Origin: Escherichia phage FL12
Sequence record: PP400786
Strand: one strand, 5' to 3'
DNA length: 64,000 nt
Positions 2,871 through 59,458 of the stretch are shown piece after piece. Each line of letters begins with the position of its first letter. Positions within the stretch are counted from its first letter, which is position 1. Under the pieces are notes generated by a model, which saw only the letters and a list, made by a program, of their open reading frames with translations, ran no database searches and was not told the DNA's origin. The position numbers and the translations under genes were made by a program.

Positions 2871-3567
<697 letters not shown>

Positions 3568-3568
<1 letters not shown>

Positions 3569-4293
3569 TATAGTACCTTTAGTGTATTTTTAATTTTAGA
3601 AAAAAGTTCTTCAAGAGAACCATCGTTTGTAATTACTAAATCGCCATCACGAATTGGCAATCCAGCTTCTGTAATATGTGTATCATTGGATTTTTGACCA
3701 GGACGAACTACATGAATTACTGTAGCATCCATCGCCCTAGCCGCATCCATTTCATGATCTTGACGAGTATCAGGAACGATATAATAATCATAACCCGAGT
3801 TAAATTTATCAAGATAATCTAAAGCAAATAATTTTACCCAGTACATGCGGTCGAAGTTATTAACAATCAAATCCGTACCTAGGGCTTGCATCAGACGACG
3901 GACTGACCATTGATCTTCAATATTATTTATAACGTCAGCAATTTTGTTAAATGCTACGAAATTAACTGATTCTTTTCCTTCGTCATCAAAAACAAACACA
4001 CCTTTAATTGGGCTTTTACCATTAAGATAGCAAAATGCTTGTTCCATAATCGTGATTACTTCTAATTTAGTCAGATTTAAATTAGTCTCACGATCATAGT
4101 CAATTCCTTCAAACTCTTTACGAGTTAAGCAAGGATAGTCAGTGTTTGCTGCAAATACTCCCCATGCATAAGCCAATGCGTCCTTAATAGGACCAGCAAG
4201 TTGGTATTTAACTGCAGAATAATTGCTCATGATAAAATCAGCAGTAGTATCTTTTCCACTACGCTTTACACCGCTTAAAAAGATTAGTTTCAT
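3568..4293 (-). CDS. 1: Gene 1 deoxynucleoside monophosphate kinase
   Basis: 241 aa from the first ATG (GAGGAG Shine-Dalgarno); P-loop GVKRSGKDT near N-terminus. The track's 254-aa form starts at TTG. Confidence 0.9.
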
Positions 4294-4342
4294 GTGTTTC
4301 TCCTCAAATTTAATTAAGATTATAACACACAAAACTGAAGCA

Positions 4343-4873
4343 TTAAACTTCTGCTATAATTTTTCCATCTTTTTCTACTTGAAAATAGGTGTAAGGAATC
4401 GTAGCTGTACATACTAAAGCCGGGTCTGAATCTTCCGTGTAGCTAAATTCTACTTCAGATAGGTCAGAAACCCAAGGCTTATAAAAATTTATTGACATCA
4501 CGATTTCAGTTTTGCTATTATCTAAGATGTAAAGCGTGATGTACTCAGGACCTGTTTTTTGGGCAGTATTTTCACCTGTAAGATAGTTGCTAGTTCCTAG
4601 CATCCATTCATACATTCCTATCCATGACTTAAGTTCTTCATCAACTATAAATCTCACAATGAGTGGATCATACTCGAATGTAACACCAGGACGTTGTGCT
4701 CGGCCCAGTCCAAACGGCCCAGTCACGGTATCAGTAACAGGTATTCTAATTCCTGGAATAGGAACTGACTGAGCATTTAAAGTAAAAGCAGATGTAGTAT
4801 TACTATGTGGTATTGATACTACAAAGTTAGTTGTATTTGCTTGGTTAAAAATTTGTTGCAGAGCTTGCGACAT
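4343..4873 (-). CDS. 3: Gene 3 tail completion / sheath stabiliser
   Basis: 176 aa from ATG at 4873 (GAGGA Shine-Dalgarno); the 203-aa track ORF is a TTG extension. Synteny 1-3-2-4. Confidence 0.85.
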   Translation of the reverse strand: MSQALQQIFNQANTTNFVVSIPHSNTTSAFTLNAQSVPIPGIRIPVTDTVTGPFGLGRAQRPGVTFEYDPLIVRFIVDEELKSWIGMYEWMLGTSNYLTGENTAQKTGPEYITLYILDNSKTEIVMSINFYKPWVSDLSEVEFSYTEDSDPALVCTATIPYTYFQVEKDGKIIAEV

Positions 4874-4979
4874 ATATTCCTCATAATGCTTTATAACTGT
4901 TGGTGGTATAATGGGTCTAAGTCCCTTCCATTCAATTCCATTTAGAACAAACAACAGAAAAGAATGGAAGATAATAGAA

Positions 4980-5804
4980 TTAGATATTTGACCAGACTTT
5001 GTTTGCAGAGAAACGTTTTCCTTTGGAGTAGAAGCTTTGGAGTGGCATCAACACAACGTTCGCCCAGTCTTTCGGGGCGATTTCAACAAGGCTACCCATA
5101 ATATTACCAGGTATATATGCCTTAATCATTTGGTCTGCACCCCTAAATCCTTTCACTTGACTCCAATCAATTTTTAATTTCGTTTTATTAGTAATAGTAG
5201 GTGTATTTGCATATTGCTTTAAAAGCTCTTCTAGAAATTGCTGGCGAGCTTTAGGTGGAATATAGTGCAAGTTTAATCCGTACATTAAATTATGCTTACC
5301 TAAACCAAGGTAAATTATCAAAGGAAATTTATCCCAGTAAGGAAGAGTTTCCTTGTGTTTAGCATCATAAGCAAAAGCATATATTCGTCCCGGCTGCGGG
5401 CGAACAACTTTATGTCCTTTTACTTGCTTAATAGTTTCAGCAAACCATTTTCTGGTTTTATTATTAATTGCTGCGCCTTCATTACGAATTTTATCACGCA
5501 ATGTTTGCCTGAATGAATTTATCATAAGCAGTTGTCTTTCTTGCTTATTGAGTTTATTCATTGGTTTTGATTCAAGCTTTTGAATCTTTTCAGCTGTTTT
5601 AATTCCTGAAGCATATTTTGACATTGCCGAAGTAAACGTAGAGTATTTGATTCCTCTTTCTTCAGCAAATTGCTTTCCTGTCATTCCTTTTGCTTTGGCC
5701 TTTTTATATTCAAGACCTATCTGAATCCATTTCTTTTCGTTTAATGATTGCTTAACCTTTGGAACTTGGGGAGTGCTTTCATTAATTATTTGAAAAATAG
5801 CCAT
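4980..5804 (-). CDS. 2: Gene 2 DNA end-protector protein
   Basis: 274 aa, basic; ATG preceded by AAGGGGG; position between genes 3 and 4. Confidence 0.85.
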
Positions 5805-36570: not shown

Positions 36571-36585
36571 TCTTTGACGATTTAA

Positions 36586-36614
36586 GGGACCTTCGGGTCC
36601 CTTTAGTTGTTTTT
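36586..36614 (+). terminator. Intrinsic terminator after gene 23
   Basis: GGGACC-TTCG-GGTCCC followed by TTTAGTTGTTTTTA. Confidence 0.8.
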
Positions 36615-39530: not shown

Positions 39531-39545
39531 GGGGCCGAAGCCCCC
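39531..39545 (-). terminator. Terminator after hoc
   Basis: On the minus-strand RNA, GGGGC-UUCG-GCCCC followed by a U-rich tract. Confidence 0.7.
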
Positions 39546-41709: not shown

Positions 41710-43221
41710 ATGACTGACATTAAAGTACATTTTTATGATTTTAGTCACGTGAGAATTGATTGTGAAGAAAGTACATTTCATGAACTCCGTGATTTCTTTA
41801 GCTTTGAAGCTGACGGGTATCGTTTTAATCCTCGCTTCAGATATGGCCACTGGGATGGACGAATTCGTCTTTTAGATTATAATCGTCTTCTTCCATTCGG
41901 CTTAGTCGGGCAAATTAAAAAGTTCTGTGATAACTTTGGCTATAAAGCCTGGATTGACCCACAAATTAACGAAAAAGAAGAATTATCAAGAAAAGATTTT
42001 GATGAATGGCTTTCTAAATTAGAAATCTATTCAGGAAATAAAAGAATTGAACCACACTGGTATCAAAAAGATGCAGTGTTCGAAGGATTAGTTAATCGTC
42101 GTAGAATTCTTAATCTTCCAACATCCGCTGGTAAATCTTTAATTCAAGCTTTGCTTGCGCGGTATTATTTGGAAAATTATGAAGGTAAAATTCTTATCAT
42201 TGTTCCAACAACTGCTCTGACAACTCAGATGGCTGATGACTTTGTTGACTATCGTTTATTCAGTCATGCAATGATAAAGAAAATTGGTGGCGGAGCATCA
42301 AAAGATGATAAATATAAAAATGATGCACCAGTCGTTGTTGGTACATGGCAAACTGTAGTTAAACAACCGAAAGAATGGTTCTCACAGTTTGGAATGATGA
42401 TGAATGATGAATGCCATCTTGCTACAGGAAAAAGTATTTCATCTATCATATCAGGTTTAAATAACTGCATGTTTAAATTTGGTCTATCAGGTTCATTACG
42501 TGATGGCAAAGCCAATATCATGCAGTATGTTGGAATGTTTGGTGAAATATTTAAACCAGTAACGACTTCTAAATTAATGGAAGATGGACAAGTAACTGAG
42601 TTAAAAATTAATAGTATTTTTCTTCGCTATCCCGATGAGTTCACTACTAAATTAAAGGGAAAAACTTACCAAGAAGAAATAAAAATTATTACTGGGCTCA
42701 GTAAAAGAAATAAATGGATCGCTAAATTAGCTATTAAGCTTGCGCAAAAAGATGAAAACGCTTTTGTCATGTTTAAACATGTATCACATGGTAAAGCTAT
42801 TTTCGATTTAATTAAAAATGAATACGATAAAGTTTATTACGTATCAGGGGAAGTTGATACCGAAACCCGCAATATAATGAAAACCTTAGCTGAAAATGGT
42901 AAAGGAATAATTATAGTAGCGAGTTATGGCGTATTTTCTACTGGTATTTCAGTTAAAAATCTGCATCACGTTGTTTTAGCGCACGGTGTTAAATCAAAAA
43001 TCATTGTATTACAAACAATCGGTCGTGTATTACGTAAGCATGGTTCTAAGACAATAGCAACAGTCTGGGACCTCATAGATGACGCAGGCGTCAAGCCAAA
43101 ATCTGCTAATACGAAAAAGAAATATGTTCATTTGAACTATCTTTTAAAACACGGCATTGATCGTATTCAGCGCTACGCAGATGAAAAATTTAATTACGTA
43201 ATGAAAACAGTTAATTTATAA
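41710..43221 (+). CDS. uvsW: UvsW RNA-DNA / DNA helicase
   Basis: 503 aa; Walker A LPTSAGKS and DECH box (MMNDECHLA); SF2 helicase motifs. Confidence 0.95.
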   Translation: MTDIKVHFYDFSHVRIDCEESTFHELRDFFSFEADGYRFNPRFRYGHWDGRIRLLDYNRLLPFGLVGQIKKFCDNFGYKAWIDPQINEKEELSRKDFDEWLSKLEIYSGNKRIEPHWYQKDAVFEGLVNRRRILNLPTSAGKSLIQALLARYYLENYEGKILIIVPTTALTTQMADDFVDYRLFSHAMIKKIGGGASKDDKYKNDAPVVVGTWQTVVKQPKEWFSQFGMMMNDECHLATGKSISSIISGLNNCMFKFGLSGSLRDGKANIMQYVGMFGEIFKPVTTSKLMEDGQVTELKINSIFLRYPDEFTTKLKGKTYQEEIKIITGLSKRNKWIAKLAIKLAQKDENAFVMFKHVSHGKAIFDLIKNEYDKVYYVSGEVDTETRNIMKTLAENGKGIIIVASYGVFSTGISVKNLHHVVLAHGVKSKIIVLQTIGRVLRKHGSKTIATVWDLIDDAGVKPKSANTKKKYVHLNYLLKHGIDRIQRYADEKFNYVMKTVNL

Positions 43222-43238
43222 GGGCTTCGGCCCTTTGG
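43222..43238 (+). terminator. Hairpin after uvsW (weak terminator)
   Basis: GGGC-TTCG-GCCC followed by TTTGG. Confidence 0.5.
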
Positions 43239-43728: not shown

Positions 43729-43953
43729 TTATACAACTCTCATATGCATATCAATGCCCATATCTTTAGAATAAAAATATTCATCAAGATATCCGGCAAA
43801 TTTTCCTTTAATATAAAGGACATCTTCACCACACGGGTGGTCGGCCAGGATACGAATATCCTGACGCTTAAGATTATGCTTTTTCATTAAGAATTGAATT
43901 TCCGTTTCAAATTCTTCTTCATAATTAAAAGCATCATCAATGCTATATCTCAT
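43729..43953 (-). CDS. Hypothetical protein, 74 aa, immediately downstream of uvsY
   Basis: ATGA overlap with the uvsY stop. Confidence 0.65.
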   Translation of the reverse strand: MRYSIDDAFNYEEEFETEIQFLMKKHNLKRQDIRILADHPCGEDVLYIKGKFAGYLDEYFYSKDMGIDMHMRVV

Positions 43954-51747: not shown

Positions 51748-51751
51748 CAAC

Positions 51752-51780
51752 GGGGACCTTTCGGTCCCCATATTTTTATT
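51752..51780. terminator. Bidirectional terminator between gene 54 and the minus-strand alt block
   Basis: GGGGACC-TTTC-GGTCCCC followed by ATATTTTTATTT; convergent gene ends. Confidence 0.8.
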
Positions 51781-52066
51781 TACGGAATGAAATGAAAGCA
51801 GCAACTGAAGCAACTAAACCGTCTTCAATATAAACCTCAATTTTTACCGGAGCTTCTGACTCAAATTTACCTGTTACTACACCTTGGAAAATACTTTCAG
51901 TCTGTTCTGGCTTTGAAAAATTTTCAGAAGGAAAAATTCCGAACTTTTTATCTGTTCCAAAAATTTTGATAAATTCATCGTAAACTGCTTCATTAAAAGC
52001 ATTATCAGCAGGAATAACGCCTTCAACTACAAGTTCTTGACCTAAAAAGCGCAAAGAAGATTTCAT
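51776..52066 (-). CDS. Hypothetical protein, 96 aa (alt-downstream position)
   Basis: ATG-initiated ORF; no motif recognised. Confidence 0.55.
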   Translation of the reverse strand: MKSSLRFLGQELVVEGVIPADNAFNEAVYDEFIKIFGTDKKFGIFPSENFSKPEQTESIFQGVVTGKFESEAPVKIEVYIEDGLVASVAAFISFRK

Positions 52067-52098
52067 TTTGTGTTCCTCATGTTATGTCAGTAAGACTA

Positions 52099-52485
52099 CT
52101 ATAACACAACACGAGGGACTTGTAAACTACATTTTGAACTTTTTAGTACGCGGAATAGGCATGCGTCAATTTTATACTGCTTCATTGTTTGAAGAGCAGT
52201 ATCAAAAACAGCGTTAATGACGCCAATTGGATTTCCACCCAAGTTTCTAAGTTTAACCAGTGATAATTTCTCGTTGACACCTATCATTACGATATGCATC
52301 ATTTTATCGCCCGGCTTAACGTTTTTATTCGTATCACCGCCAGAGGTGTATGTACAAAATCTAAATCCAGGAAGCACGCTTTCTTCGCCGGCTTGAATAG
52401 CAAAAATTTGTGGTATTTTATGCTTAGGATTTAAGTTAACAACCGGCGCCGAAGCGCCGTCAAATAATTATGTAATAAGTTCCAT
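52099..52485 (-). pseudogene. Truncated paralogue of the alt 5' region with an in-frame TAA at codon 6
   Basis: Immediately after the alt stop: ATG GAA CTT ATT ACA TAA, then the same frame continues ...KIPQIFAIQAGEESVLPGFRFCTYTSGGDTN..., paralleling Alt residues 1-110. Only a GTG at 52377 could restart translation. Confidence 0.6.
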
Positions 52486-52488
52486 GAT

Positions 52489-54579
52489 TTATCCTTGAAC
52501 GAACTTGTAAGGCATGTTTGCAATATCTATGCAAGACGCAATAATTCCAAGAGATGATTCTACTTTCTGTTTAACATTTGATGAAACAAATGATGCAAAG
52601 TCAACTCTGTCTTCTATATCACCTGTCATTGTAACCAATTCACCAGTTTCCATTAAATGGTCTCCGTCATAGATTACCGATTCGGTGAGTTCTTCTGTGG
52701 TCATGACTTCAGCTTGAATGAGTTTTGTATTATTAGATGTTGTTCCGTCATTATTAGAAGCATCAGTTATTTTATTAACTTTGACCATTAATCCGCGCGG
52801 TAGAATAACTTCAGCTTCTGTTGCTATTCCGAGACTTCCTGGATATACAACATTAACTTTATGTGCGCCGTCAATTGCCCATCCTATTTGAACTTTAACG
52901 TATTCAGGATTTTCTTTATACGCTCTTATTTCGTTTGGATTAATAGTTATTCCTTCTTCATTTTTATCAACTGTCAATTCATTACGAGCTTCTGGTTCTA
53001 AAAGACCAATACCAGCATGTGTAATTCCAAAACGCCCAAAAATGATAGGAGTTAAAGAAGTAGATACAAAATTTCTGAAATAGAACACTTTATTTTTAAC
53101 TAACGCTTCATATATAGGAGCAGTCATACTTTGAGCACGATAAACTGTAATGCCTTCTGGTATACGGTCACCATTTTCAAAAGCTGAATCTAAGTTATTT
53201 ATAGCAGATTCAATTTCTTTTTCACTCATTACATCATATCGTTCTGGATTGTAACGACCTAAAAGAAGATTATTGATGTCAGTATATCCTGAACCGCAAT
53301 ATTCTCTAATGCCACGCTTTTGTGATGGAGTATATTTAGAACCATCGCGGGCAATAGTAATATCAATCATTGGACCAGCACCAATTCCAGAAAAACTGTA
53401 AATCATTCGTTTGAGGAATTTAGTTTTTGCTGCGTTCCAGGAATTTTTAGTTATTTCTTCCCAGACTTCATCTGGTTGTCCTTTACGATTTTTATTATGA
53501 TTAGCAAGCCATTTATCTTTATAATCTTCAAAGAATTGATTTACAGCTGCTGCGTATTTCTCTAAACATTTTATTGAAGTAGTTGGTTCATTTTTAATTG
53601 CATTAAAAATTACTTCTTTAATTTTTTCTGAAACTTCACCGACTTGACTCATTGGAAAGAATTTATAATCATAGTGAAGTTCATCTGCCGTTCCTTCAGC
53701 AATAATTTTTGCTGCCTTTGTTTTAGAAGCTAATGAATTAATTCCAATTTTCATTTCTTCTGCTTCGGGAATTAAAGGTGCAGTAGCTGGTTTATTAAAA
53801 TTAGCTGCTGTAGATTCATACTTCTGGAATAATTCACTTTCAAATCTAGAAGATTCCAATGACTGACTTTGTGCAATTGCTCTACGGGAAATTTTAACTT
53901 TAACAATTACGGCTTGGTCAGAACGTTTATCATTTTCTTGTGCAATAGATGCTGCAATTGCCTCATTTTTAGTTACTTGAGCTCCAGTATCTTTATTGAT
54001 ATAAACATCACCGACCTTCGATTCAACTTTAGTAAAGAGCTCGGTACTAATTTCCGGAACCCCTGGAATGTCTTCTAGTGATACATTTTTGCGATGTATA
54101 AGAATATATGCATACTTTTTATCATAATCCCAGAGTTCCTTAAGAAGGACGTATCTGCCACCTGAACGACTACGGATAAGTCTATCAGCAATAACTTGAA
54201 TTTGTCGAGCTTGACCAGCAGTTTTAGACTTAAGAATACGGAGCATACAGGCATCAATTTTATACTGACGCATTGTTTGCATTGCAACAGTAAAAACTGA
54301 ATTGATATAATTAATTGGGCTTGGACCAAGACCTTTTAATTTAGCAATTGAACCTTTAGCGGTTAATGTAAAAGGAACAATATGCATCATTTTGTCGCCC
54401 ATTTTTAAATCACGATTAGTATCACCTCCAGATGTATAGGTACATAAACGAAAGCCTGGTTGTTCAATTGCATCATCAACGTGAACTGAAAAAATTTGCG
54501 GTATTTTCTTCTTTGGATGTAAGTTTGTAATTGGAAGAGTAGTATCTTCGTCAAATAATTCTGTAATAAGTTCCATCAT
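52489..54579 (-). CDS. alt: Alt ADP-ribosyltransferase (packaged, modifies host RNA polymerase)
   Basis: 696 aa; ADP-ribosyltransferase signature R...STS...ExE (YRAQS, FVSTSL, EAEVILP); position next to gene 30. Confidence 0.9.
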   Translation of the reverse strand: MMELITELFDEDTTLPITNLHPKKKIPQIFSVHVDDAIEQPGFRLCTYTSGGDTNRDLKMGDKMMHIVPFTLTAKGSIAKLKGLGPSPINYINSVFTVAMQTMRQYKIDACMLRILKSKTAGQARQIQVIADRLIRSRSGGRYVLLKELWDYDKKYAYILIHRKNVSLEDIPGVPEISTELFTKVESKVGDVYINKDTGAQVTKNEAIAASIAQENDKRSDQAVIVKVKISRRAIAQSQSLESSRFESELFQKYESTAANFNKPATAPLIPEAEEMKIGINSLASKTKAAKIIAEGTADELHYDYKFFPMSQVGEVSEKIKEVIFNAIKNEPTTSIKCLEKYAAAVNQFFEDYKDKWLANHNKNRKGQPDEVWEEITKNSWNAAKTKFLKRMIYSFSGIGAGPMIDITIARDGSKYTPSQKRGIREYCGSGYTDINNLLLGRYNPERYDVMSEKEIESAINNLDSAFENGDRIPEGITVYRAQSMTAPIYEALVKNKVFYFRNFVSTSLTPIIFGRFGITHAGIGLLEPEARNELTVDKNEEGITINPNEIRAYKENPEYVKVQIGWAIDGAHKVNVVYPGSLGIATEAEVILPRGLMVKVNKITDASNNDGTTSNNTKLIQAEVMTTEELTESVIYDGDHLMETGELVTMTGDIEDRVDFASFVSSNVKQKVESSLGIIASCIDIANMPYKFVQG

Positions 54580-54615
54580 ATCCTCTCTAGTGTTTATTCT
54601 ATTTATAAAATTAAA

Positions 54616-54627
54616 GGCCCGAAGGCC
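54616..54627 (-). terminator. Terminator between the 62-aa ORF and alt
   Basis: Minus-strand RNA GGCC-UUCG-GGCC followed by UUUAAUUUUAU, directly after the stop at 54629. Confidence 0.7.
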
Positions 54628-54628
54628 T

Positions 54629-54817
54629 TTAGTAATCTAGTGGTAAGAGAGTACGATATATTTCAAACTTTGGTCCTTTTTCATAGGCATCAAATGTTTC
54701 TGTAAATTTATTATAAGCGTATGCATCTACAAATTCGAGAATGACTTGTGATACAGAAGTAGAAACATCTCCACCTTCTTTTTGAGCAATGACAATTGTT
54801 TCTAAGTAAGCTTTCAT
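54629..54817 (-). CDS. Hypothetical protein, 62 aa (alt.1 position)
   Basis: Small ORF overlapping the gene 30 stop. Confidence 0.55.
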   Translation of the reverse strand: MKAYLETIVIAQKEGGDVSTSVSQVILEFVDAYAYNKFTETFDAYEKGPKFEIYRTLLPLDY

Positions 54818-58541: not shown

Positions 58542-58558
58542 AGTATTTTCCTCAGTAA

Positions 58559-58572
58559 GGGGCCGAAGCCCC
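58559..58572 (-). other. UUCG-tetraloop hairpin between the 30.7 and 30.6 ORFs
   Basis: Minus-strand RNA GGGGC-UUCG-GCCCC with no following U-run; likely an RNA stability or processing element. Confidence 0.5.
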
Positions 58573-58582
58573 TCATTTTATT

Positions 58583-59405: not shown

Positions 59406-59435
59406 AACTTTATGCAATCTTTGGAAAATAAAAAA

Positions 59436-59458
59436 GGACTCCCGAAGGAGTCCTCAAC
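59436..59458 (-). terminator. Intrinsic terminator after the 30.9 ORF
   Basis: Minus-strand RNA GGACUCC-UUCG-GGAGUCC followed by UUUUUUAUUUU. Confidence 0.8.

Follow-up and report, generated by a model that had tools for sequence, protein, structure and literature searches.

A very probable pseudogene downstream of alt in Escherichia phage FL12, the remnant of a second full-length alt-type gene

Introduction

The DNA that follows alt has been described in T4 and in a Yersinia phage. In the T4T record the same place is occupied by two short ORFs, alt.-1 (61 codons) and alt.-2 (67 codons), which according to a GenBank note 'reflect a deletion and further frame shift in the second copy of gene alt', and Nolan et al. 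(2006; PMC1524935) treat the T4 alt.-1 and alt.-2 genes as paralogues of alt. The corresponding product of Yersinia phage fPS-2, g192c (LR215722), is labelled 'similar to N-terminal of RNA polymerase-ADP-ribosyltransferase Alt; putative pseudogene'. The remnant is already documented for these two phages, and T2, T6 and most other Tequatroviruses carry in its position a full 685-codon gene, alt2.

The stretch of DNA analysed here, 64,000 nucleotides of Escherichia phage FL12 (PP400786) and referred to below as the window, is a segment of a T4-type (Tequatrovirus) genome. Its interval 52099-52485, immediately downstream of alt, had been interpreted in an initial annotation as either a decaying duplication of the alt 5′ end or a gene restarted from an internal GTG. 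Aligned with the ORFs that lie downstream of alt in T4, a comparison which that annotation had proposed, the interval proves to be the alt.-1/alt.-2 locus, with 94-95% nucleotide identity. Judged by its sequence, it is the T4 alt.-1/alt.-2 remnant in a different allelic state.

Results

An Alt-like reading frame interrupted at codon 6

Genes 29, 48 and 54 lie on the + strand of the window, and ligase gene 30, alt.1, alt, the remnant interval and alt.-3 lie on the − strand. The features of the locus are as follows.

52489-54579 (−): alt, the functional packaged ADP-ribosyltransferase and paralogue of the remnant; 696-codon ORF, annotated alt in T4T, T2 and fPS-2
52468-52485 (−): start of the alt2 remnant, ATG and MELIT, then at 52468-52470 a TAA nonsense codon in place of the GAA (Glu6) of intact copies
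52444-52459 (−): hairpin CGGCGC-UUCG-GCGCCG, at alt2 codons 9-14 (DGASAP); 6-bp all-G:C stem, ΔG −11.2 kcal/mol folded alone
52375-52377 (−): GTG (codon 37), the proposed restart but only a mechanical ORF start, opening a 92-codon ORF (52099-52377)
52322-52326 (−): A5 run, intact in the window; A4 in T4 and many relatives, where this −1 frameshift divides the remnant between alt.-1 and alt.-2
52138-52146 (−): deletion junction, with the sole surviving copy of the repeat CTAAAAAGT, from the alignment to full-length alt2
52099-52137 (−): remnant tail, …KCSLQVPRVVL and a stop, aligned to the T2 alt2 3′ end (…MSKKFKM and a stop)
52098-52126 (−): T4 early-type promoter for alt.-3, TTTACA-17-TATAGT with an extended TG, 10/12 match
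51776-52066 (−): alt.-3 (DUF5498), the intact gene downstream of the remnant, given for context

The alt stop codon (TAA, 52491-52489, − strand) is followed by ATC and then by the remnant ATG (52485-52483), and the observation that a MELIT frame begins three nucleotides past alt and runs straight into TAA was borne out on the − strand. Beyond this codon the frame remains open for another 122 codons, to the TAG at 52101-52099, for a total of 129. With codon 6 read as E, it is identical to the Alt protein of the window at 70 of 117 residues (60%; BLASTP, E = 2e-47), and it shares 236 of 351 nucleotides with the alt 5′ end, a likeness that must be considered far beyond chance on the strength of these alignments. 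A parallel to Alt residues 7-110 had been proposed; the homology holds, but its end point lies slightly further on, at codon 116/117. Nor does the frame simply diverge after the Alt-like part, as had been thought, since what follows is a deletion junction and then out-of-frame and promoter sequence.

The remnant matches phrog_802 only at positions 2-120 of 674 (E = 5e-51) and, unlike Alt, in which Pfam places the PF03496 ADP-ribosyltransferase domain at residues 379-628, it has no Pfam match and so no PF03496 domain. The N-terminal region of Alt is presumed to be the part concerned with head packaging; in the PDB there was no structure over this region, and weak matches were to the CDT toxin catalytic region alone. 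The uninterrupted reading frame to be expected of an Alt-like ADP-ribosyltransferase is broken in the window by the TAA at codon 6. A word-indexed protein search with the reconstructed 128-aa query returned three matches, namely a 92-aa cluster from SG1-type phages and two fragments, and did not recover Alt itself, so that it says nothing about full-length relatives.

Some further features of the window may be recorded here. The alt gene opens with two adjacent ATGs (54574-54579, − strand; MMELIT…), with the Shine-Dalgarno sequence GAGAGGA upstream of both, and the mechanical alt ORF thereby gains one codon over T2 alt, which starts MELIT…. Between the convergent genes 54 and alt.-3, at 51750-51771, lies a bidirectional terminator-like stem-loop, GGGGACC-TTTCGG-TCCCC, which is an annotated terminator in the fPS-2, e11/2 and G8 records. 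Seven tRNA genes (Met/CAT, Thr, Ser, Pro, Gly, Leu/TAA and Gln) form a cluster at 44-615 on the − strand, as in the T4 tRNA region.

A 1,699-bp deletion in a full-length second alt gene

A megablast search against 50,697 phage records found the region in about 500 (~489) T-even-type phages, the closest record over the region being that of Escherichia phage EC128 (98.7-99%). In most of these records only the first 351 nt of the remnant match, and they do so under a full-length gene for an 'Alt-like ADP-ribosyltransferase'. In T2 and T6 this gene, alt2, is 2,058 nt long, starts 3 nt past alt and begins MELITELFDGASAPVVNLNPKHK… (MELITELFDGASAP); the remnant is 97% identical to it.

When the window was aligned to T2, the alignment broke at a 9-bp direct repeat, CTAAAAAGT, which is found in alt2 at nt 340 and again at nt 2039, 1,699 nt apart, a spacing present in five of eight full-length alt2 copies. 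The deletion takes out alt2 codons ~117 to 682, stripping away everything homologous to the catalytic ADP-ribosyltransferase domain, and joins codon about 116 to the last few codons of the gene, with a shift of frame at the junction, 1,699 not being divisible by three. About 90 of the roughly 489 records carry this junction, which in T4 is identical to that of the window, and the 9-bp repeat alone accounts for its end points.

We conclude that the interval is very probably a pseudogene, the remnant of alt2, the full-length alt-type gene found immediately after alt in most T-even phages. The idea of a decaying duplication of the alt 5′ end was correct in so far as a duplicate has decayed, but the interval is not a copy of the 5′ end only; it is the internally deleted remnant of a complete and ancient second gene, which remains full in T2, T6 and Merlin. 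The last of these, a Citrobacter phage of the genus Moonvirus (KT001915.1), has two full-length alt genes (814-2904 and 2940-5063), and over the N-terminal 120 aa the second of them stands nearer T2 alt2 (65%) than alt (52%). This makes the duplication an old one, which predates the Tequatrovirus/Moonvirus split.

A different fate of the gene was observed in phage sutha (PV245934.1, 4691-4807), in which another, independent deletion of alt2 has left the last 38 codons (MTGFNQFLVEES…KKFKM and a stop), overlapping the alt stop. This loss by a different deletion argues that alt2 is dispensable.

The tail of the remnant consists of the last 11 nt of alt2, read out of frame (the old stop, TAG, is at 52127-52129), together with sequence from downstream of the gene, and it overlaps the early promoter of alt.-3. 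The RNA and the protein of alt.-3 are both early in T4 (PMC9697503, Table S2). A 48-nt segment of Staphylococcus phage SAJK-IND (MG010123.1, 31849-31896) matches the remnant tail and alt.-3 promoter region at 97.9%; it is situated near the end of a 32-kb record and probably reflects contamination or chimeric assembly there.

Second lesions and relaxed constraint in the deleted copies

Twenty-six copies of the region were aligned and more were added later. The deleted copies differ in the further lesions that they carry, as listed here by phage.

SYGD1, FL23, AV121: deletion only, 128 codons uninterrupted
Window, fPS-2, fPS-90, 215Ecol030PP: deletion and TAA at codon 6
T4T, G8, e11/2, TB004, Lv5cm, VEc20, Pu-Krd-SF6, two uncultured contigs: deletion and A5-to-A4 frameshift
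Lutter, BYEP02, GRNsp7, slur03, SP21535, F26, ELT1: deletion and both lesions
F1: deletion, both lesions and a 9-nt deletion inside the remnant (alignment columns about 242-250)
HY03: deletion, both lesions and a 7-nt insertion (AGAAACT) inside the remnant (alignment columns about 215-221)

The exact TAA-bearing segment of 71 nt occurs in 44 phage records from many laboratories, so that the TAA is not a private error of one sequence, and the deletion was present in 42 of 42 TAA records among the matches listed (of 44). All eight full-length alt2 genes sampled (T2, T6, two IMG/VR contigs and four metagenome contigs) are intact, with GAA at codon 6, the A5 run and an open 685-codon frame. Pattern scans of IMG/VR and of metagenomes, which yielded 4 and 5 loci, served as an independent sample and gave six full-length intact copies and three deleted copies with the frameshift.

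Variants private to the deleted copies were 6 synonymous to 12 nonsynonymous, which does not differ from the neutral site ratio (p = 0.26), as against 28 synonymous to 2 nonsynonymous for variants seen in full-length copies (Fisher p = 1.7e-5, with a full-length sample that is small, at eight, and sequences that are related). Private variants are few in the C-terminal, alt.-2-like part (2 synonymous and 2 nonsynonymous), and constraint there is statistically compatible with the data. Taken together, these observations show alt2 to be a dispensable paralogue that evolves without constraint once gutted.

These states can be ordered in a two-step pathway. In the first step, deletion of 1,699 bp between the 9-bp repeats CTAAAAAGT removed the catalytic domain and shifted the frame, which now runs through the old stop and into the alt.-3 promoter. 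In the second, the disabled copy suffered a G-to-T change in the lineage of the window, turning Glu6 (GAA) into TAA, and the loss of one A from the A5 run in T4. In other relatives the two lesions occur together, or further indels are present.

The C(UUCG)G hairpin and possible retention of cis-acting elements

A hairpin, GGCGC-TTCG-GCGCC, had been noted just past the TAA at 52445-52458. It is real and extends to a 6-bp stem at 52444-52459, starting 9 nt past the TAA. Its unchanged presence inside intact alt2 genes indicates that it was inherited and is not a product of decay. At the top of its stable stem a C:G pair closes the UUCG loop, as in the C(UUCG)G hairpins of T4 mRNA, which Tuerk et al. 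in 1988 are said to have called 'extraordinarily stable'. We considered and rejected an intrinsic (Rho-independent) terminator at this place, where the stem-loop is G+C-rich but the U-tract is missing (tail GTTGTTAACTTA) and the terminator scan was silent; Rfam has no family at the hairpin.

The C(UUCG)G hairpins were noticed as a class in T4 mRNA (PMC4371310), and the window contains eight UUCG hairpins with perfect stems of 5 bp or more, against 0.65 expected from block shuffles (maximum 3), a 12-fold enrichment. They are located as follows.

36584-36603 (+): UUCG hairpin
39531-39544 (−): UUCG hairpin
43220-43235 (+): UUCG hairpin
43846-43863 (−): UUCG hairpin
52444-52459 (−): UUCG hairpin of the remnant
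54612-54631 (−): UUCG hairpin between the alt.1 stop and the late promoter of alt, TATAAATA
58558-58573 (−): UUCG hairpin
59435-59454 (−): UUCG hairpin

The hairpins at 54612-54631 and 52444-52459 thus bracket alt. It is plausible that the latter might stabilise alt mRNA or form a structural barrier at its 3′ end.

If so, the segment may have been kept for its RNA or cis-acting elements, the hairpin serving in 3′ end formation, stability or processing of the alt transcript and the tail serving as the alt.-3 promoter, and selection would then explain why the remnant survives. We regard this as unlikely, although the enrichment of UUCG hairpins and the presence of one just upstream of the late promoter of alt agree with it. 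The hairpin lies 30 nt past the alt stop and is invariant in 26 of 26 aligned copies, intact alt2 included, but it is no more conserved than its flanks, in that zero variants in 16 nt, against an expectation of about 0.8-2.2, is what chance would give. Nearly all of the 489 records are within one base of the 71-nt segment of the window, and yet the hairpin is absent from Merlin alt2 at the same codons. Its 81-nt context folds only marginally better than shuffled sequence (z = −1.3), and the missing U-tract sets it apart from canonical intrinsic terminators. At the promoter-like site 52098-52126 the Lutter record likewise has an annotated promoter, which favours a function for the tail, although the end points of the deletion need nothing beyond the 9-bp repeat. 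Retention of cis-acting elements complements the pseudogene verdict, which concerns the coding frame, and does not exclude it. The only working elements left in the pseudogene would be inherited cis-acting ones, namely the alt.-3 early promoter, which is supported, and perhaps the C(UUCG)G hairpin.

Translation of the remnant

The remnant ATG retains a good Shine-Dalgarno sequence, AAGGA (−5.2 kcal/mol, compared with −5.7 to −6.4 at the starts of alt, alt.-3, 48 and 54), and for this reason the five-codon MELIT ORF is probably translated. Ribosomes would load 3 nt past alt, make MELIT and stop, and no functional protein would result. In SYGD1, FL23 and AV121, in which the frame is uninterrupted and the Shine-Dalgarno sequence is likewise good, a truncated N-terminal-domain protein could be made and might perhaps be useful. 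This leads to a combined proposal, to which we assign a very low probability, that the hairpin defines or protects the alt mRNA 3′ end, that the Alt N-terminal piece made in those three phages modulates Alt packaging, and that the TAA is a recent knock-out of this modulator in which the RNA element has been kept. Were it true, a truncated Alt N-terminal protein would compete with Alt for packaging or modulate it.

A still less probable alternative is that a small functional gene restarts past the TAA and supplies a free-standing Alt N-terminal fragment, either from the GTG at 52377 (92 aa), as the initial annotation had suggested, or from the ATG-ATG at 52302 (67 aa, equivalent to T4 Alt.-2). 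The frame is open from both places, but their Shine-Dalgarno sequences are weak (−2.4 kcal/mol for the GTG and −3.6 for the ATG-ATG, against −5.2 to −6.4 at real starts), and in T4-type relatives the −1 frameshift interrupts the GTG frame. Most of the lesions, that is the TAA at codon 6 and the frameshift at about codon 54, lie upstream of the ATG-ATG, and many records annotate the 67-codon ORF, for which there is a separate PHROG (phrog_15247). Even so, this frame is broken by the 7-nt insertion of HY03, F1 lacks 9 nt inside it, and its final 12 codons are out-of-frame and promoter sequence. As a separate ORF it is absent from most Tequatroviruses because the gene there is full length. In T4, transcripts of alt.-1 and alt.-2 were seen and classed as 'middle', but proteomics did not detect the Alt.-1 and Alt.-2 proteins, small proteins being easily missed (PMC9697503, Table S2). 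We therefore abandon the restart at the GTG, on the combined grounds of its weak Shine-Dalgarno sequence, the broken frame in T4-like relatives and the undetected T4 proteins.

It is scarcely credible that the TAA reflects a fault of sequencing or assembly, or that readthrough or suppression yields a 128-residue protein, even though GAA is one base away and the ATG has a good ribosome-binding site. The identical allele recurs in 44 independent records, often beside other frame-breaking lesions; the seven tRNA genes of the window have ordinary anticodons with no ochre suppressor among them; and the protein would in any case be without the catalytic domain.

Discussion

The pseudogene interpretation of the interval has little significance beyond annotation hygiene. 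The 92-codon GTG ORF and the 67-codon 'alt.-2' ORF, which annotation pipelines predict here and sometimes name 'RNA polymerase ADP-ribosyltransferase', should be flagged as pseudogene fragments. To the remnant as previously documented, our analysis adds the exact junction at a 9-bp microhomology, a survey of alleles and evidence for relaxed constraint in the deleted copies. On a small scale, the locus illustrates how a gene of T-even phages dies step by step: a deletion at a microhomology comes first, and nonsense, frameshift and indel hits then arise independently and are reshuffled by recombination. The locus also shows the second alt paralogue to be dispensable and repeatedly lost, which may provide background for the function of alt2 in T2 and T6.

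The interval resembles alt2 of T2 (KMC23_gp211, 685 aa) in its position, in 97% nucleotide identity over the first 116 codons and in the DGASAP codons that form the hairpin. It differs from the alt2 genes of T2, T6 and Merlin in that these are intact, with a C-terminal ADP-ribosyltransferase region, while the window lacks 1,699 bp. In relation to the C(UUCG)G hairpins of T4, that of the remnant is distinguished by lying within present or former coding sequence, not in a spacer between genes, and by having no U-tract. With alt.-1 and alt.-2 of T4 (AF158101 / HM137666) the interval shares its place between alt and alt.-3, its strand, the 9-bp junction, the hairpin and the high nucleotide identity noted at the outset, but T4 has GAA at codon 6, the A5-to-A4 change and two ORFs, whereas the window has the A5 run, one continuous frame and TAA at codon 6. 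The genotype of Yersinia phage fPS-2 is identical to that of the window, combining the deletion, TAA at codon 6 and an intact A5 run in a region that is 98.6% identical; the ORF annotated in the fPS-2 record is the 92-codon GTG ORF, and between these two phages there is no substantive difference.
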